NCBI GenBank assembly: GCA_030441535.1
Contig: JAUJFZ010000006.1
Span: 6,456 to 38,455, forward strand
Reading direction: 5' to 3'
Length of the DNA: 32,000 nt
DNA from: Betaproteobacteria bacterium LSUCC0117
GTDB lineage: Bacteria; Pseudomonadota; Gammaproteobacteria; Burkholderiales; Burkholderiaceae_C
Below, in pieces: positions 3,367 through 28,034 of the stretch. The stretch's first letter is position 1, and each line of letters starts with the position of its first letter. The position numbers and the translations under genes were made by a program. The notes beneath the pieces are model-generated. The model was given only the letters and a program-made list of their open reading frames with translations, was not told the origin of the DNA and did not search any database.

Positions 3367-6072
3367 GTGATGCCCACCCCGATAACAACCGCGACAGTCC
3401 AGCCTTTGCCAAGCCTCCCATCTGCGGAAGAGGTGATTGGTCATTGGGACTGGAGTCCCGCGCTGGGCACGTTGCATGAATGGATCCAATCGCAGGGCAT
3501 TCATGCGTCTCAGGTGGTTGTGCTGGTCCCTTTTGCGCAAATGATGTCGCAAGCGACCGCCGCTTGGGGTCAAGCCTTTCCCACGAGCTTCGTACCCCGC
3601 TTCGAGACCACTCGCAATTGGGCTGGCGCGGCAGGCGGACCAGCGATACAGGCAGACGATTTAACGCTTGACGTGGCACACGATAGCGTTGTGGCTGCCG
3701 CCATGCTCGCGAGCGTCAAAATTCGGGGGCTCGATGCCCACTGGCGACGAACGCTGGCACCACAGCTCGTTGAAACAGCGCACGAATTAGCGACGCTGGT
3801 CGCTTCTGTGCACCCCGATACACGGTCCGATTGGCTTGCCGAGCGCCTCGCCGTATTGAATCTTGGTAGCGGTGACGGCTTCCAGCGCTGGGAGTCGCTC
3901 ATCGGGACGATGGCTCTGACATGGGCGGCCAACTCGCAGTACCCAACCGATGTGCTCTGGCATCCGGTCCTGCACCCGTCTGTCGCCGCATTGGCCGCGA
4001 TACCTGGCCTCGCAGATGACCCTTTGACATCGGCCTTGTTGGCTCACTGGCCGAACGTCAAGCGCCTACCACCGCTGGCGGTACGAACCGCTGAAAACGG
4101 GTCACCGAACCCGGCTCGTTTGCTGGCAGCCGATGATGCGCAAACAGAGGCGCAAATGGCTGCAGCGCGCGTGATTGCGCATCTGCAGGCGGGCAGAGTA
4201 CCCGTCGGCATCGTGGCTCAAGACCGTTTATTGACCAAGCGGATCCACGCCCACCTGCAAACCGCTGGGGTCGATTGGCGAGATGAGACTGGCTGGCGCC
4301 TGTCGACCACCCGGATCGCTGCGTGGGCGATGCAGTGGCTTGCAGCGGCTGCACCGGATGCGCCAGCTGATGCGCTGGTTGACTTCGTGAAGTTGTGCCC
4401 GTGCTGGCAGGATCGTGAGACAGGGCTCTTCGAGGCTGACATTCGAGCGCTTCGGGCGCGGCAAGCCAGGGTGGCCCTAACACACGAGAAGGTGACGCAA
4501 CTGGACGGTTTAGCCAAGCTATTGGCAATGGCGCAGCGCCCGAAGACTTTTGATGATTGGCGACAAACAACACTTGACGCGCTGGACCTCGCGGGGCTCT
4601 GGCGGTCAGGTGATTGTCCCGAGGATATTGCGCAACTACTGCACGTCCTGCGCGCCGATTCGGCGGGCGCTGACAGCGCCCGGTCTCTGCAGCTTTTGCC
4701 ATGGCCCGTTGCACAGGCTGCTGATTGGGCGCAACTGTCACGCAATCGATTTGTGGCGTGGCTGCGTGGGGCACTGGAGGCCCACAGCTACAAGCCGACC
4801 TACGTGGGGCGTGTTGAAGTGGTGGCTTTGCCGATGCCTCAGCTGTACGGTAGGGAGCTGGGCGCTGTGGTTTTGGCGGGTTGTGATGCCGTGCACCTAC
4901 CCGCACACGTCGCAAACGCGTCAATTTGGACGCCGGCGCAGCGAACGGTGCTGGGCTTGGAAAGTGCCGAAGAGGCGACCCAGCGCGCTTATGACGCTTG
5001 GTGTTTGACGCTGCAATTTCCACGGCTTGACATCTTCTGGCGTCAAACAGATGGTGATCAGGTCATGCAGCCTGCACCTTGGTTGAGCTTGCTAACCACC
5101 GGCACAGCGGACGATAAGCGCCCAACTCGCTGGTCCGTCATGCGCCCGGTCGTTGACAGCAAAGACGAGCGGCATACCCGCAGCTTGACCCACACGCCAA
5201 CGCAGACGCCGGCAACGCCAATGGGGACCGTTCTGCCGACTCGTCTTTCTGCGAGCGCTTATCAGGCCTTGCGTGATTGCCCTTATCGGTTTTTTACACA
5301 TTACGGCCTGCGGTTGCGCGAGGTTGAGGAATTGGCGCTACCGCCCGGCGCGCGCGATTTTGGCAATTGGATTCACCGGACACTTGCTGCGTTCCACGTG
5401 GGCGGGGGACAGTTGTCTCACTCAACGACCCGTGCCGTTTTAGAAGAAACGCTGAGTCAGTGCGCACATGCCGCGCTGCCGAGCACACTGGCTGAGGATC
5501 CTGATTTTTTGCCGTATCTGGCATCCTGGCCCGCACTTCGGGATGGCTATCTCGACTGGCTCCACGCGCACGAGGCAAATGGCTTTTCAGTCGATAGCCA
5601 CGAGACACCGATTGAGCGCGTCATCTCGGAAGACACTGGGCTCACATTGTTTGGCACCGTGGATCGCATCGACACCGGCACCGATGCCGAAGGTAAGCGC
5701 ACCTTTGCGTTCATTGATTACAAGACGGAGCATCCCGATAAGACCCGGGCCCGGGTGTCAAGCAATAGCGAGGACACCCAACTGCCTTTTTATGCTGCTA
5801 TCCATGAGCCGCGGCGCCGCGGCAGTGACACCAGCGTCGAGGCCAGCTATCTCAATCTAGGCAGTCGACCCGACTCGAAGGCAAAAGGTCGCCTCACGCA
5901 GACCATGACGTTGGCGGCGGTTGACGAACAGGCCGAGCAATTGGTCACCCAAATTGCGCACGATTGGCAGCGCTTACAGGCGGGCACAGCCGTCAAGGCA
6001 TTAGGGGAAGGGGATGTGTGCACCCATTGCGCCGCCCGCGGTCTCTGTCGAAAGGCGTATTGGGATCTATGA
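3367..6072 (+). CDS. addB: AddB-like PD-(D/E)XK nuclease subunit of an AddAB-type helicase-nuclease (no Walker A)
   Basis: 901 aa. C-terminal RecB-type nuclease motif (GTVDRIDT...FAFIDYKTE). Four Cys in the AddB Fe-S pattern: LRDCPYRF ... CTHCAARGLC (C-x2-C-x5-C). Stop overlaps the start of the downstream UvrD-like gene (ATGA). GTG 3367 or ATG 3370 could be the start. Confidence 0.8.
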   Translation: MMPTPITTATVQPLPSLPSAEEVIGHWDWSPALGTLHEWIQSQGIHASQVVVLVPFAQMMSQATAAWGQAFPTSFVPRFETTRNWAGAAGGPAIQADDLTLDVAHDSVVAAAMLASVKIRGLDAHWRRTLAPQLVETAHELATLVASVHPDTRSDWLAERLAVLNLGSGDGFQRWESLIGTMALTWAANSQYPTDVLWHPVLHPSVAALAAIPGLADDPLTSALLAHWPNVKRLPPLAVRTAENGSPNPARLLAADDAQTEAQMAAARVIAHLQAGRVPVGIVAQDRLLTKRIHAHLQTAGVDWRDETGWRLSTTRIAAWAMQWLAAAAPDAPADALVDFVKLCPCWQDRETGLFEADIRALRARQARVALTHEKVTQLDGLAKLLAMAQRPKTFDDWRQTTLDALDLAGLWRSGDCPEDIAQLLHVLRADSAGADSARSLQLLPWPVAQAADWAQLSRNRFVAWLRGALEAHSYKPTYVGRVEVVALPMPQLYGRELGAVVLAGCDAVHLPAHVANASIWTPAQRTVLGLESAEEATQRAYDAWCLTLQFPRLDIFWRQTDGDQVMQPAPWLSLLTTGTADDKRPTRWSVMRPVVDSKDERHTRSLTHTPTQTPATPMGTVLPTRLSASAYQALRDCPYRFFTHYGLRLREVEELALPPGARDFGNWIHRTLAAFHVGGGQLSHSTTRAVLEETLSQCAHAALPSTLAEDPDFLPYLASWPALRDGYLDWLHAHEANGFSVDSHETPIERVISEDTGLTLFGTVDRIDTGTDAEGKRTFAFIDYKTEHPDKTRARVSSNSEDTQLPFYAAIHEPRRRGSDTSVEASYLNLGSRPDSKAKGRLTQTMTLAAVDEQAEQLVTQIAHDWQRLQAGTAVKALGEGDVCTHCAARGLCRKAYWDL

Positions 6073-15201: not shown

Positions 15202-16821
15202 ATGTCTCACCAAAAGATCCTCATCCTCGACTTCGGTTCTCAAGTTACCCAGCTGATTGCACGCCGCGTGCGCGAGGCCCACGTCTATTGCGAGGTTCAC
15301 CCTTGCGATGTATCGAGCGATTGGGTCAAAGCATTCGCTGCAGATGGGATGTTGAAGGGGGTGATTCTGTCTGGCAGTCACGCGAGCGTCTACGAGGAAT
15401 CGACGGACCGTGCGCCTGACGCCGTATTCGAGTTGGGTACCCCTGTCTTGGGCATCTGTTACGGCATGCAAACCATGGCCCAACAACTGGGCGGGAAAGT
15501 CGCGAGTGGTCAGACACGCGAGTTTGGCTACGCCGAAGTGCGCGCCCACGGGCACACGCGGTTGCTGAACGACCTTGCGGATTTCACCACCCCCGAAGGA
15601 CATGGCATGTTGAAGGTTTGGATGAGTCATGGCGACAGGGTAGTCGACATGCCGCCGGGCTTTAGTGTGATGGCATCGACCCCCAGCTGTCCGATCGCTG
15701 GCATGGCCGACGAAACCCGCGGTTACTACGCATTGCAATTTCACCCGGAAGTGACCCACACCGTGCAGGGCGCTGCCATGTTGCGTCGCTTCGTGCTGGA
15801 TATCTGTGGCACTTCACCCGACTGGATCATGGGTGACTATGTGAGTGAAGCCGTCGCACGCATCCGCGAGCAGGTGGGCGACCAAGAGGTTATTTTGGGT
15901 TTGTCTGGCGGTGTCGATTCTTCGGTCGCGGCAGCCCTGATTCACCGTGCAATTGGCGACCAACTGACCTGCGTCTTCGTTGACCACGGTCTGCTGCGTC
16001 TCAATGAGGGCGACATGGTGATGGAAATGTTTGCCGGTAAATTGCACGCCCGCGTGATCCGTGTTGATGCCTCCGAGCTATTCCTAGGGCAGTTGGCGGG
16101 CGTCGATGACCCCGAGAAAAAGCGCAAGATCATTGGCGGTCTTTTTGTCGATGTTTTCAAGTCCGAGGCGGCGAAATTAAAGGCGGGTGACGGTGGCCAC
16201 AAAGGCGCGACCTTCCTCGCCCAAGGCACGATATATCCGGACGTTATCGAAAGCGGTGGGGCAAAGAGCAAAAAAGCCGTCACCATCAAGAGCCACCACA
16301 ACGTGGGCGGCCTACCTGAACAACTGGGGTTGCAGTTGCTTGAGCCGCTACGGGACCTGTTCAAGGACGAAGTCCGAGAGCTAGGTGTGGCGCTGGGCTT
16401 ACCGCACGACATGGTGTACCGCCACCCATTCCCAGGCCCCGGACTGGGCGTACGCATCTTGGGTGAAGTCAAAAAGGAATATGCAGACTTGCTGCGTCAA
16501 GCCGATGCCATCTTCATTGAGGAATTACGCAATTTCCGAGATGAAGCAACGGGTAAAACTTGGTACGAGCTGACCAGTCAAGCCTTCACCGTCTTCTTAC
16601 CCGTCAAAAGCGTTGGCGTTATGGGGGATGGTCGTACCTATGAGTACGTCGTTGCCTTGCGCGCGGTGCAAACCAACGATTTCATGACCGCCGATTGGGC
16701 CGAGTTGCCCTACGCGCTACTCAAGAAGACTTCGGGCCGCATCATCAACGAAGTGCGCGGTATCAACCGCGTGACGTACGACGTGTCGAGTAAACCGCCA
16801 GCGACGATTGAGTGGGAGTAG
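15202..16821 (+). CDS. guaA: GMP synthase (glutamine-hydrolysing)
   Basis: GATase domain ([27 protein letters not shown]), ATP-PPase P-loop LSGGVDSS, and dimerisation-domain end ...[13 protein letters not shown] 15202 gives 539 aa; ATG 15196 and GTG 15184 are alternatives. Its last 15 nt form the left island repeat. Confidence 0.97.
16807..16821 (+). repeat. attL core (left copy of the direct repeat; functional end of guaA)
   Basis: ATTGAGTGGGAGTAG encodes IEWE-stop. It matches 27977..27991 at 14 of 15 positions. Confidence 0.85.
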
Positions 16822-16833
16822 TTTTTATAATCT

Positions 16834-16951
16834 AAGTTGTTGATTTATAAGGGTTTTGTAGTTACACAAAACTTTCACAAATCAAATAAGTTGTTGATTT
16901 TATTAGGCGTTGAAATTACAGTTACACGTAAAGCTACACAAAACTGTAGCT
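16834..16951 (+). repeat. Left-arm repeat cluster (candidate integrase/RDF arm sites)
   Basis: Perfect 13-bp direct repeat AAGTTGTTGATTT at 16834-16846 and 16888-16900. AGTTACACAAAAC at 16860-16872, GTTACACG at 16921-16928, AGCTACACAAAAC at 16932-16944. Inverted repeats GTTTTGT-N6-ACAAAAC (16853-16872) and AGCTACA-N6-TGTAGCT (16932-16951). The same motif classes recur at the right end. Confidence 0.7.
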
Positions 16952-16981
16952 ATTCAAAATCGTAAGTAACTTCAACGCCAT

Positions 16982-18727: not shown

Positions 18728-19138
18728 TTATACGCCATTATCACCGCCAAAAGTGTGCGATTTAACGCCGGAAGACGCATTATTGAGGCGAGACACGGCT
18801 CCATTGTAGGGCTGAGATAGGTTCTGCTGACTTGTGGGTAATGCTGAATTAGGCTGTGACGTAGGTTGGGGGTTGGTGGCTTTCGGCTTGGGCTTAAGTG
18901 GGGGTTGGGGTGAGGGTTGCTTGGGCTTAGGTGGGGGTGGTGGAGTGGGTGGCTTTTTTATAGCCTTACCCATATCAGCCTTACGCTTACGTGGCTTGAG
19001 TTTGGCGTTAGCCTTACGCTGTGCTTCGGATCGCTTCTGTTCTTCCGCTTGCTTTGCGATAGCCGCCCAAGTGTTGTCAATAATCGTACGCAATAAGCCA
19101 AGCTGTGCTTCCGCATCCGCAAACTCAAAGAACCTCAT
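18728..19138 (-). CDS. Hypothetical protein with a basic, extremely proline-rich centre
   Basis: 136 aa. Strong SD AAGGAG 6 nt before the ATG. A plausibly folded N-terminus (MRFFEFADAEAQLGLLRTIIDNTWAAIAKQAEEQ) is followed by KKPPTPPPPPKPKQPSPQPPLKPKPK. The antisense Gly-rich ORF 18834..19235 was rejected. Confidence 0.6.
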   Translation of the reverse strand: MRFFEFADAEAQLGLLRTIIDNTWAAIAKQAEEQKRSEAQRKANAKLKPRKRKADMGKAIKKPPTPPPPPKPKQPSPQPPLKPKPKATNPQPTSQPNSALPTSQQNLSQPYNGAVSRLNNASSGVKSHTFGGDNGV

Positions 19139-19679: not shown

Positions 19680-19755
19680 ACTGTAGCTTCAGAACTTATT
19701 AAGGACAACCGAAAGGAAAATTTCTCCAATCCTTTGGTTTCGTATAAATAATAGT

Positions 19756-20280
19756 ATGAAACTACAAGAAATCCGCTCTCGTACAGCTTATGACCCTAAC
19801 GCTCTGCCTACACAGAAGGCAGCGGTACGTGCTTGGTTAGGTGGAATGAGTAAGGAATTTCCGCTGTCTTTGACGTTGACGCTTAAGCAAACCATTGTTG
19901 AGAAAAACGACAGAGGCGTGTACAGAAGAACTGTGAAGCGTGATGATTGCGAACGCATAGCCAAACGCTTCATACAAAAACTGAACAGACAAGTGTTCGG
20001 AAAGTATGCGGCAGACAAGTGCGGTAAGTCACTAAAGTATTTGCCAATCGTTGAAGGTGAGAGAAGCAATAAGCATCTTCATCTTCACTTTGCCATTGGT
20101 GGATTGCCAAGTCACGTTAAGTTTAATCAGTTTGACACGCTGGTTACCAATGCCAAGTTACAAGTTGAGAACATAGACAGCGAACACAAGGTGGACGTTA
20201 CCGACAGCGGTTGGATTTCGTACATCACTAAAGAGGTTGGCACAAAGGACACTGACAATGTCCTTTGGACTCTTTTCTAA
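19756..20280 (+). CDS. HUH-superfamily rolling-circle Rep-like protein (small; inovirus gpII/YagK-YfjJ-like layout)
   Basis: 174 aa with three motifs in canonical order. Motif I is FPLSLTLTL (aa 35-43), motif II is HLHLHFAI (aa 107-114, HUH), motif III is WISYITKE (aa 153-160, YxxK). No SD is present; TATAAA sits at 19743-19748, just upstream of the ATG, so the transcript may be leaderless. Confidence 0.6.
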   Translation: MKLQEIRSRTAYDPNALPTQKAAVRAWLGGMSKEFPLSLTLTLKQTIVEKNDRGVYRRTVKRDDCERIAKRFIQKLNRQVFGKYAADKCGKSLKYLPIVEGERSNKHLHLHFAIGGLPSHVKFNQFDTLVTNAKLQVENIDSEHKVDVTDSGWISYITKEVGTKDTDNVLWTLF

Positions 20281-20316
20281 AAGCATTACTGCCCTCGTTT
20301 GGCTCTTGCTTCGTCC

Positions 20317-20630
20317 TTAAAGCTGTAATAGCTTTAATTGGCGAAGCTATGTCTAAACACAATTAAACAGCTAAAGCTAACACTCAAACAGTCAAACACT
20401 GAAAGCAAAACAATAAAACTGAGTAGTACAGAGGTAAAGAATAAACAGCAGAAGCAAAGCTGACGCACTAAAACAAGCTACAAACGCTTCAAACAAGCTG
20501 AGCTAAGCTTGGGTAGCTGAGTAAGCTTAAAACAGCGTATAGGGCTTGTACGCAAGTCTGTTCGTATGTGGCTAAGCTGCCACAGCTTAAGAACAGCTAC
20601 AAAACCAAAGAGAATTACTAAAAGCTTTGT
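20317..20630 (+). repeat. AGCT-rich, A-skewed non-coding repeat region (candidate origin, recombination site or ncRNA)
   Basis: No ORF of 60 aa or more on either strand between 20281 and 20680. I count 16 AGCT tetramers between 20321 and 20626. Palindromes: TTAAAGCT-gtaat-AGCTTTAA (20317-20337) and TAAGCTG-cca-CAGCTTA (20573-20589). Direct repeats: AAACAAGCT at 20471 and 20491; AGCTGAGCTAAGCTT (20496-20510) versus AGCTGAG-TAAGCTT (20515-20528). Confidence 0.7.
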
Positions 20631-20768
20631 TTTTTAGGTTAAATATACATAACCTGTTGAAAACATTGAGGAAATTACTTTGGAACAAACAACGTCAAAA
20701 TCGGTAGGAATTAAGAAACAAAGAAAATACACTTTAGACATTGGAAAGCTTACATTAAGGAGAGCACT

Positions 20769-21345
20769 AATGTCCAAGCAAGCAAAAGTACTGACAGCAC
20801 AAGAAATCCGTAGGGTACTTGATTACGTGGCTACACGTCCACATTCAGTGCGTAATAGGGCGATGTTTTTGACGATGCTTTACGCAATGCTACGTGTCAA
20901 AGAGTGTGCCGCACTACGCTACGAAGATGTATTAGACGCAGAAGGCAAGATTAAAGCGGAGTTCTATCTGTCAGCTGAGCAAACCAAAGGGCGTAAGGGC
21001 GGGACTGTATTCGTCAGCGAAAAGCTTCGCAAAGAGCTACAAACCTACGTACGTGCGTTTCCGCCTAAGGCACTCAGTGACAAGCTTTTCTATTCACAGA
21101 AGCGTCCAAGTGAGGGTTGGAACAGCAACACGCTTTGCCAATTCTTCCATCACTTGTTCCGCAACTGTGACATTTCGGGTGGCACAAGTCATAGCCCAAG
21201 ACGCACTGGAATTACCAATTTGGCAGACAAAGGTGTCAGCGTTCGGGTTTTACAAAGCATTGCCCGTCACGCAAATATCTCAACCACTCAGTGCTACATA
21301 GACGTCAATGACGCTATGAAGCGGAAGGCTATTGAGTTAGTTTAA
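20769..21345 (+). CDS. Small tyrosine recombinase, essentially the catalytic domain only (FimB/FimE-sized)
   Basis: RHRY-type signatures: AMLRVKECAALRYEDV (Arg I), HSPRRTGITNL (HxxR), IARHANISTTQCYIDV (His and the Tyr nucleophile). Start set at ATG 20769, 8 nt after AAGGAG (192 aa). The track's TTG 20680 start has no SD. Confidence 0.85.
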
Positions 21346-21579
21346 GGCTTCGTCTAACTCGTCATCATCCATACCCCAAATTGCTTGGGCTATGACGTAC
21401 TTGTCAATCTCGATTTTGGCAGTATCAATCTCTGCCCACTTTAGATTGTCAAGAGCCTGAGCCGCTATTCCTTCCCAAGCTTCTTGTTCATCGACCTCCG
21501 ATGGAGATGTTTGATTATCAAAGTCAGCTCTGAGGAACGCAGTTGATATTGCTAGTCCAACGATAGCATCGATGTTCAT
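21337..21579 (-). CDS. Hyper-acidic small protein (80 aa; 19 Asp/Glu against 4 Lys/Arg)
   Basis: The ORF starts 10 nt downstream of the truncated H-NS-like gene on the same strand. The sequence ends ...WGMDDDELDEALN. Net charge is about -15 by my count. No family recognised. Confidence 0.6.
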   Translation of the reverse strand: MNIDAIVGLAISTAFLRADFDNQTSPSEVDEQEAWEGIAAQALDNLKWAEIDTAKIEIDKYVIAQAIWGMDDDELDEALN

Positions 21580-27804: not shown

Positions 27805-27900
27805 TTTTTTCCATTCGCATTCTGTGTATCAAAACGAAAGTAAAATCAAAGCTTCACAGGCACTTAGTCCAACCATAAGGGAACTTATGTCCGTGCGCAA

Positions 27901-27970
27901 AGTTACACAAAAGTTACACATGAAAAATCACCGCTCACAAGTCGTTGATTATATTGACTATTTTAGTCAA
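27901..27970 (+). repeat. Right-arm repeat cluster (candidate integrase/RDF binding sites)
   Basis: Tandem AGTTACACAAA-AGTTACACA (27901-27920). AAGTCGTTGATT (27939-27950) is related to the left-arm AAGTTGTTGATT. Inverted repeat TTGACTA-ttt-TAGTCAA (27954-27970) lies 6 nt from the att core. Confidence 0.65.
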
Positions 27971-27976
27971 GTAACT

Positions 27977-27991
27977 ATTGAGTGGGAATAG
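27977..27991 (+). repeat. attR core (displaced copy of the guaA 3' end)
   Basis: ATTGAGTGGGAATAG is a 14/15 match to 16807..16821. GC-rich host sequence resumes immediately to its right. Confidence 0.85.
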
Positions 27992-28034
27992 TACGCTGAG
28001 CGCCCAATGACCATGGTCTGAATCAAGGCGCACG

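Follow-up and report, generated by a model that had tools for sequence, protein, structure and literature searches.

The non-coding interval at positions 20281-20680 of the window, by which we mean the whole 32,000-nucleotide stretch of Betaproteobacteria bacterium LSUCC0117 DNA analysed here, separates rep174, a gene for a minimal HUH-type rolling-circle replication protein (Rep), from rec191, a gene for a tyrosine recombinase that consists of the catalytic domain only. Both genes belong to an 11.2-kb island of low GC inserted at the 3' end of guaA. We found the interval to be a real, conserved and composite cis-acting region of a guaA-type island family undescribed so far, best seen as a variant of known origin-type or transfer origin (oriT)-type regions. 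Our favoured reading, to which we give about even credence, is that it combines a site recognized and nicked by Rep with a site for the mini-recombinase, the latter being a transfer origin or a resolution site. We favour it because the interval has a motif-and-hairpin layout, is accompanied by one HUH nuclease and one domain-poor recombinase with no recognized relaxase, and is arranged much like the corresponding region of the Klebsiella plasmid pIGRK. The original prediction, drawn from the letters of the window alone, had made an excess of the tetramer AGCT the key feature of the region, and this excess turned out to be lineage-specific and dispensable.

Relatives were collected by scanning genomes and metagenomes, once each, which gave 112 loci (32 genomic, 80 metagenomic), almost exclusively from freshwater Burkholderiales (Polynucleobacter and Limnohabitans). 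The layout and its conservation could be observed directly in this set, as could covarying hairpins, the motifs of Rep and the intact active site of the recombinase. The region and its architecture are conserved in >100 of the loci, the AGCT richness being confined to one clade. A core of ~100 bp is kept in 80 of 80 aligned relatives, including loci in which rep174 is missing or replaced, and it occurs in one copy per locus or island; no second copy was found elsewhere in the islands, the few extra pattern matches being coding DNA (for example, a 271-aa open reading frame (ORF) in L002). At the heart of the core lies the 9-mer AGCGTATAG, inside which the sole columns invariant in the 80 sequences (G, C, T and G) are found. 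The position of the motif relative to the rec191 ATG is -235 +/- 2 in 75 of 85 sequences; its spacing from rep, by contrast, differs among loci by hundreds of bases. Given the fixed distance to the ATG, the presence of the core without rep and its single copy per island, the core is a plausible site for the adjacent recombinase, one of several roles that had been proposed for the region as a whole.

The Rep-proximal third of the interval carries a second conserved module, made up of hairpins A and B and followed by a conserved flank. When the 42 distinct sequences were folded one by one, both hairpins formed in every one of them, over a range of Rep identity of 28-100%. The inner stem of hairpin A exists as GCC/GGC, GGC/GCC, GAC/GTC, GCT/AGC and GTC/GAC, all compensatory changes, and the stem of hairpin B occurs in at least nine versions among the 42 sequences. 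The 68-nt module formed by the two hairpins has a folding energy of -19.3 kcal/mol (z -2.9). Hairpin B has no U-run and is therefore no plain terminator. The flank, with the consensus TTAAT(T)GGCG(A/T)AGCT(A/T)TG(T/C)C(T)AAA, is kept across Rep classes down to 28% identity, and divergence of the Rep-proximal module correlates with that of Rep (rho 0.89). A double-strand origin for the HUH Rep, confined to this third of the interval, appears from these comparisons, together with the Rep motifs of rep174 and the weakly supported HUH-like fold of its model, to be the best supported of the earlier ideas; the iterons that had been offered along with it were not found, since no set of at least three regularly spaced direct repeats of ~17-22 bp was present and the repeat families were two-copy only. 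The word CTTTAAT at the border of hairpin B and the flank equals the nick context of M13 gpII, and AACACTCAA, 47 nt later, recalls the gpII binding region; with two short words that may match by chance, this resemblance is a lead only.

The motifs of rep174 are found in Rep order, LSLTLTL (residues 37-43), HLHLHF (107-112) and YITKE (156-160) representing motif I, HUH and YxxK, respectively, and H109, Y156 and K159 are invariant in the alignment of the Rep family (A6). Its match to Pfam PF23343 scored 24.7 bits, below the cutoff, and many relatives carry PF23343. The best PDB matches of its AlphaFold model (predicted local distance difference test, pLDDT, 80) were HUH nuclease domains, although weak (E at least 0.036, template-modelling (TM) score at most 0.50), with adeno-associated virus (AAV) Rep (1uut_A, probability 0.98, TM 0.50), parvovirus NS1, RAYT and IS200-type nucleases as the top Foldseek matches. 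A search of the Rep-family profile against PDB sequences gave nothing significant, and tblastn of rep174 against phage and plasmid collections retrieved no homologue.

In the core, a hairpin always follows AGCGTATAG, with a sequence and register that change among relatives. The window offers two mutually exclusive versions of it. The first, GCGTATA/TGTACGC (20535-41 with 20547-53), is the local minimum-energy fold and is 84% paired over the relatives, with many G-T/G-U pairs that are C-A mismatches on the opposite strand. The second, GGCTTG/CAAGTC (20543-48 with 20553-58), is the tetraloop-type hairpin GGCTTG-TACG-CAAGTC that had been noted before at 20543-20558; its position was right, but the local minimum-energy fold is the first version. 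The second stem persists with other sequences in relatives, namely AGCTTG/CAAGCT with a larger loop in L010, GGGCT/AGCCC in L109 and GGGGCG/CGC-CCC in L116. A conserved short motif beside a hairpin of free sequence is the usual recognition mode of HUH nucleases and relaxases, and a motif and hairpin on one strand are usual for sites at which nicking or recombination takes place while the DNA is single-stranded or extruded. Pairing within a single-stranded + strand, be it RNA or DNA, is likely for three hairpins: A, B and the one after AGCGTATAG.

The downstream enzyme, rec191, matches Pfam PF00589 (E = 2.8e-25) from its residue 6 (residues 36-211 of a 221-aa ORF that starts at TTG) and has no core-binding or arm-binding domain. 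Its catalytic residues R42, K73, H141, R144, H167 and Y176 are complete and invariant. By NCBIfam and PDB it is Xer-like, with XerA, XerD and XerC as the best named relatives, and it has weak full-length NCBIfam matches to FimB/FimE-like one-domain proteins. More than 1800 homologues were found in the protein database of metagenomes.

From this arrangement we infer nicking, the assignment of each enzyme to its site, and an outcome in replication, transfer or resolution. Excision of the island by Int would give a circle, on which rep174 would nick the + strand near hairpins A and B and the flank and so start rolling-circle replication or single-strand transfer. The core would be where the domain-poor rec191 acts, either as an atypical relaxase, with the core as transfer origin as in the rep-oriT-mobK order of pIGRK, or as a multimer resolvase. 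The CAAAC/AAACA spacer of variable length between the two sites accounts for most of the A-over-T skew of the interval, and a hairpin with a T-run beyond the core would insulate the rec191 promoter.

Several observations weigh against this reading. Any nick site in the interval is a candidate that neither sequence nor experiment proves. The MOB_M relaxases are MobK, TcpM and MpsA; rec191 has no specific relationship to MobK (E = 0.32 by BLASTP, confined to the HxxR...H...Y region), looks like an ordinary catalytic domain of the Xer/FimB type and was therefore not filed as MOB_M. Plasmid homologues of rec191 adjoin par (parAB) and toxin-antitoxin genes, neighbours that suit resolution better than transfer. 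Among the loci with all three parts, divergence of the core follows Rep (rho 0.72) more closely than rec191 (rho 0.57), so that the core could be a Rep site instead and the assignment of the enzyme is uncertain. Covariation in the core fails to separate the two exclusive folds, whose helix sets score 0.150 and 0.151; the robust covariation measures were not significant, being reached by 78-178 of 500 shuffles, and RNAalifold retained only one invariant helix and the terminator. Neither is the + strand unusually stable, folding at -49.6 kcal/mol over 20462-20640 compared with -44.2 kcal/mol after shuffling (z -1.3; minus strand z -1.9). Finally, an RNA would be equally compatible with the position of the origin behind rep, with the shared strand and with the terminator.

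The closest parallel to the arrangement is pIGRK, in which repR is followed by a ~456-bp spacer, with oriT directly upstream of the mobK promoter, and then by mobK, whose product is a tyrosine-recombinase-like relaxase consisting of the catalytic domain only (PMC8152469). The island shares with it the order of a replication gene, a non-coding spacer of ~450-490 bp with inverted and direct repeats, and a catalytic-domain-only tyrosine-recombinase-like protein, as well as the catalytic Arg/Lys/His/Arg/His/Tyr set. The differences are considerable, however. Rec191 has 191 aa, compared with 242 aa in MobK, and is without the C-terminal tail; the Rep of pIGRK belongs to the winged-helix proteins and lacks HUH motifs (PMC6854812); the element described here is integrated at guaA, lacks the G-rich tract and has nicking and mobilization roles that are predicted. 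Compared by eye, the core and the pIGRK oriT showed no sequence similarity. In a plasmid database, pIGRK (L036, NC_011405.1) and 15 close relatives are listed as 'non-mobilizable' and mobK as a 'site-specific integrase', although the plasmid is experimentally mobilizable. This misannotation is a blind spot that would equally hide a relaxase role of rec191.

A second parallel is the mobilization module of Salmonella Genomic Island 1 (SGI1), also an integrative element. Upstream of its tyrosine-recombinase-type gene, and in the same orientation, lies a conserved non-coding stretch that ends in an inverted repeat and forms the 3' portion of a transcript including a small ORF (PMC6414798, PMC9299015). 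There, sgm-sRNA is cut from an mRNA 3' end; it is encoded between oriT and mpsA, and mobilization requires it (PMC9299015). The likeness is one of arrangement, and the two differ in several respects: the catalytic tyrosine of MpsA is residue 319, which makes it far longer than rec191, MpsA requires the core-binding-like MpsB, no MpsB-like gene was recognized in the island, and the SGI1 oriT is GC-rich. With HUH rolling-circle origins, including those of plasmids and the gene II region of Ff phages, the interval shares a nuclease gene beside a strand-asymmetric, multi-hairpin non-coding region with a putative nick context, and with the M13 (+) origin the two words mentioned above, in the same order. 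It differs from them in that the origin would lie downstream of rep, iterons or regular repeats and a stable fold like that of a single-strand origin are lacking, and Rep has only 174 aa without a detectable phage or plasmid homologue. A classical single-strand origin in 20462-20640 was considered and rejected, as the stability of the + strand there is unexceptional. GIsul2, an island that also targets guaA, has the order int-alpA-repA/C-resG, with resG thought to keep the circle monomeric (PMC9376610). The target at the guaA 3' end, the integrase, the replication genes and a second recombinase are common to both islands; repA/repC and resG bear names that differ from those of the genes described here.

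The strongest competitor, which we nevertheless regard as rather unlikely, is that the core and terminator form a non-coding RNA, made from its own promoter or as the 3' end of the rep transcript, that is needed by rec191 or regulates it. The region lies on the same strand as both neighbouring genes, its A-rich and T-poor composition is that of unpaired RNA segments, the wobble pairs of the core hairpin work on the + strand alone, conservation begins at the rep stop codon as in a 3' untranslated region, and SGI1 sets a precedent with the same gene order (PMC9299015). In most relatives, moreover, the conserved block is closed by a hairpin and U-run with compensatory stem swaps. This terminator-like hairpin is 88% paired, with both partners varying in 4 of 6 pairs, and has its stem replaced entirely by ATGTAAGG/CCTTACAT in distant loci; in L008 it reaches -13.9 kcal/mol (z -3.7). 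In the window, however, it is degenerate (-3.4 kcal/mol, z 0.27). No Rfam match was obtained on the island even at E = 1, nothing relevant was found on five related loci at E up to 0.1, and the sequences directly preceding the core belong to several classes without relation to each other. The folding energy at the level of shuffles and the equal scores of the two exclusive folds, without significant robust covariation, also speak against an RNA. A consensus scan of 85 relatives turned up no recurrent sigma-70-type promoter, but it is uninformative because it missed the rec191 promoter as well.

Somewhat less probable still is a multimer-resolution (res/dif-like) site in the core, on which, in double-stranded DNA, rec191 would act as a true recombinase and so keep the excised, replicating circle monomeric. 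This explanation overlaps with our favoured reading, in which the remainder is likewise a Rep origin and a spacer, and differs in the function of the core alone. It fits the full and invariant active site, the Xer-like catalytic domain, the FimB/FimE-like one-domain architecture capable of recombination, the parAB and toxin-antitoxin modules beside the plasmid homologues, the single core copy per element and the presence of int-alpA-rep-resG at guaA in GIsul2 (PMC9376610), and GCGTATA-N5-TGTACGC is an inverted repeat of suitable size. Two groups do not keep this inverted repeat, however: that of L110 and that of L010, in which a direct AGCGT repeat takes the place of the second arm. The changes in the arms, moreover, keep pairing on one strand only, which is unexpected for the half-sites of a binding protein. 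By analogy with MpsA of SGI1, which needs sgm-sRNA, rec191, which is without any DNA-binding domain, might instead use a nucleic-acid cofactor derived from the core, either an RNA or a folded single strand freed by the HUH Rep, besides its protein-DNA contacts. We consider this speculative idea improbable, but, if it is true, an HUH nuclease, a domain-poor tyrosine recombinase and a structured spacer would make up a new machine for single-strand mobilization or recombination.

That the interval is ordinary intergenic DNA, comprising the terminator of rep, AT-rich DNA to which the island's MvaT/H-NS-like silencer binds, and the promoter of rec191 but no dedicated cis-site, is quite improbable. 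The GC of 20401-20800 is 0.372, which places it among the island's 400-nt blocks of lowest GC, a neighbouring gene is weakly MvaT-like (E = 0.004), and the spacer is of low complexity and variable length. Such DNA would not be expected to contain a ~100-bp core with an invariant 9-mer at a fixed distance from recombinases down to ~50% identity, a hairpin B without a U-run that covaries across Rep classes, or conservation far exceeding that of the adjoining spacer. Least probable, and already largely refuted, are a switch that inverts or is deleted between the two AAGCT palindromes and a tandem-accretion junction between two islands, both of which had been put forward in the original prediction: the palindromes are related and 254 bp apart and rec191 has the size of the FimB/FimE invertases, but a single orientation and a collinear order are seen in all 85 relatives, the second palindrome is unconserved beyond the closest subclade, the island has a single att pair with no internal att copy between its halves, and the order rep, non-coding region, rec191 recurs in >100 loci.

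We recounted the tetramers on which the prediction had rested and, as it had stated, found 16 AGCT in the 306 bp from 20321 to 20626, mostly (10) as AAGCT; all remaining 306-bp windows in the 32 kb have fewer than 7. The excess of more than 10-fold that had been claimed holds against base composition (0.94-1.3 expected, a 12-17-fold excess) but not against the island-wide density of 7.9 per kb (2.4 expected, 6.6-fold) or against dinucleotide-preserving shuffles (n = 2000, mean 6.5, maximum 13, 2.5-fold), in which 16 was never attained. Six of the 16 lie in the core, three in the spacer, two in hairpin B, two in the subclade-specific hairpin, and one each in the flank, immediately before the terminator and inside it. 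AGCT is its own complement and any stem that contains it therefore counts twice; the excess arises from the many stems and repeats with the self-complementary cores AAGCTT, CAGCTG and TAGCTA in this lineage. In the clade with rec191 identities of 74% or more, loci mostly have 6-17 AGCT per 320 nt, with L075 (0) and L085 (3) as exceptions, and in the clade at ~50-62% identity there are 0-6, with stems of the ACGC/GCGT type and the invariant motif, hairpins and spacing retained. Because L075 and the latter clade keep the same architecture, the tetramer is a dispensable by-product of self-complementary stems, a lineage habit of stem composition, and not the functional or recognized unit. The excess is a property neither of the donor genome nor of the whole island. 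A striking k-mer excess may thus reflect the composition of stems and be no signal of its own.

Most of the remaining counts in the prediction were reproduced. The A-over-T strand skew is pronounced, with fractions of 0.41 for A and 0.20 for T in the AGCT-rich region and an AT skew of 0.355, which ranks 7 of 3170 windows (island mean 0.087, standard deviation 0.133). AAACA, given as about nine tracts, occurs 10 times (1.5 expected) and TGTTT once. The two palindromes, TTAAAGCT/AGCTTTAA (20317-20337) and TAAGCTG-cca-CAGCTTA (20573-20589), were correctly placed, as were AAACAAGCT at 20471 and 20491 and the AGCTGAG(C)TAAGCTT pair with its 19-bp spacing; the sole exact repeat is a 9-mer in two copies, and no ORF of at least 60 aa was found between rep and the mini-recombinase. 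The proposed phasing at about 20 bp was not confirmed, neither a 10-bp nor a 20-bp period being significant in Fourier analysis of the window. The echo of attL seen in AGCTACAAAC is at the level of chance (15 matches, 9.7 expected); the true arm repeats of attL are AGTTACACAAAA.

The spacer, which supplies most of the AAACA excess and of the skew, is weakly conserved in the alignment of the region (A1) and ranges from ~100 to ~650 nt across loci. In L114 (~2040-2075) it is a pure (CAAA)n microsatellite, which suggests that slippage shapes it. Beyond the core, the TGTGGC/GCCACA hairpin is present in the closest subclade only, is 52% paired over all relatives and lies in a variable region. In the window and its closest relatives, the terminator-like hairpin that follows is missing two stem pairs (CCAAAGAG, compared with CCAAAGCT in L008, 5830-5872) and a 5-bp stem is left, so that read-through from rep to rec191 may be higher in this subclade. 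A complementarity between terminator and leader (CTTTGTTTTTT with AAGAAACAAAG) was discarded as coincidental, being lost where the hairpin sequence changes. The leader contains an in-frame extension of rec191 of 30 codons (20680-20769), starting at TTG here and at TTG, GTG or ATG in relatives, which is open in 92 of 98 sequences, the other frames being almost always closed, and many database entries are annotated with 221 aa. Variability is equal at the three codon positions of the extension, without third-position excess, and the start of rec191 was therefore kept at ATG 20770. The coordinates of all features are collected in Table 1.

Table 1. Features of the interval between rep174 and rec191, with its boundary genes and the attachment site (att) cores of the island (positions in the window)
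Feature	Position	Strand	Remarks
rep174, minimal HUH-type rolling-circle Rep, 174 aa	19756..20280	+	upstream boundary gene
Hairpin A, two-tier	20282..20310	+	outer AGCA/TGCT (20282-85 with 20307-10), inner GCC/GGC (20291-93 with 20301-03)
Hairpin B, TTAAAGCT-gtaat-AGCTTTAA	20317..20337	+	2 AGCT; first palindrome of the original prediction
Conserved flank TTGGCGAAGCTATGTCTAAACAC	20338..20360	+	candidate Rep nick/recognition sequence
Spacer, A-rich, T-poor, degenerate (T/C)AAACA units	20350..20461	+	includes conserved AACACTCAAAC (20379-20389)
Core, ~100 bp	20462..20560	+	6 AGCT; AAACAAGCTACAAACGC ... TTGGGTAGCTG ... AACAGCGTATAGGGCTTGTACGCAAGTCTG
Invariant motif AGCGTATAG	20534..20542	+	9-mer, heart of the core
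Variable hairpin beside AGCGTATAG	20535..20558	+	two mutually exclusive versions
Hairpin TGTGGC-taagct-GCCACA	20567..20584	+	2 AGCT; overlaps palindrome TAAGCTG-cca-CAGCTTA (20573-20589)
Terminator-like hairpin and T-run	20603..20637	+	preceded by an A-run, could work on both strands
rec191 promoter/leader	20640..20769	+	highly conserved (alignment A1); ribosome-binding site AAGGAG at 20757
rec191, catalytic-domain-only tyrosine recombinase, 191 aa	20770..21345	+	downstream boundary gene
attL core ACGATTGAGTGGGAGTAGT	16804-22		end of guaA
attR core ACTATTGAGTGGGAATAGT	27974-92		17/19 identical to the attL core (19 nt)

Islands of this family are abundant in freshwater Polynucleobacter and Limnohabitans and carry variable cargo, in this case a type I restriction system. 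If the spacer is the origin at which the HUH nuclease and the one-domain tyrosine recombinase act, the replication and movement of islands that look immobile would be explained, and the small and poorly sampled group of origins linked to tyrosine recombinases (pIGRK, pCW3, SGI1) would gain members from environmental Betaproteobacteria. The candidate sites are defined, being hairpins A and B with the flank on the one hand and the invariant AGCGTATAG with its adjoining hairpin on the other.

In the island, guaA ends at 16821 and is followed by int, two small ORFs, DUF6641 on the minus strand, rep174, the non-coding region and rec191, and then by two small minus-strand ORFs, one of them the weakly MvaT-like gene, and the type I restriction-modification system. 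No canonical relaxase was recognized among the screened ORFs, those of 102, 136 and 80 aa having no significant family match; two tandem 33-nt G-rich repeats (GCTTGGGCTTAAGTGGGGGTTGGGG..., 18886-18951) lie inside the 136-aa ORF on the minus strand. Five arm-type repeats AGTTACAC(A/G) were found within 16804-16965 and 27880-27992, three of them close to attL and a tandem pair close to attR. The genomic loci share a backbone of guaA or another target, int, DUF6641, a rep-like gene, the non-coding region and rec191, with variable downstream cargo, and in the shorter metagenomic loci the segment of rep, non-coding region and rec191 is visible. No DNA match to 19700-21400 was obtained in E. coli genomes or plasmids, and no comparable core-like motif was found upstream of the plasmid homologues of rec191 in Legionella, Azospirillum and Piscirickettsia.

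A rep174 homologue (28-100% identity) is present in 41 of the 66 loci with sufficient upstream sequence. In several of the remaining loci a diverged sister protein is found in which H-x-N replaces HUH (LHYNIY, IHVNLA), as in L015 (4225-4746), L017 (5061-5603) and L009 (670-1245) and also in L056, L082, L086 and L098; these sister Reps keep the Y-x-T/L-K-E tyrosine motif, and each is followed by a long hairpin of its own. A few loci have no rep and instead carry a different conserved non-coding block of ~700 nt (GGTTAGCACGCCGACTGTAAT.GTGCCGC.AAATCCGTTCTGATGTGTGACGGTAAG...) between DUF6641 and the core (L001 ~5000-5700, L007, L099 and L101, + strand), the first ~55 nt of which occur in the opposite orientation in L013, L029 and L030; this block had no Rfam match and no ORF. 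Near-identical modules were also seen on contigs L009, L014, L021 and L024, which are binned in metagenome-assembled genomes of Saprospiraceae, Terrimicrobiaceae or 'Bacteroidetes', reflecting either mis-binning of a mobile element or spread beyond the Burkholderiales. Unrelated to these findings, a Comamonadaceae contig (L013, 67-281) contains a group I intron-like match of 42 bits, the gathering score being 50.

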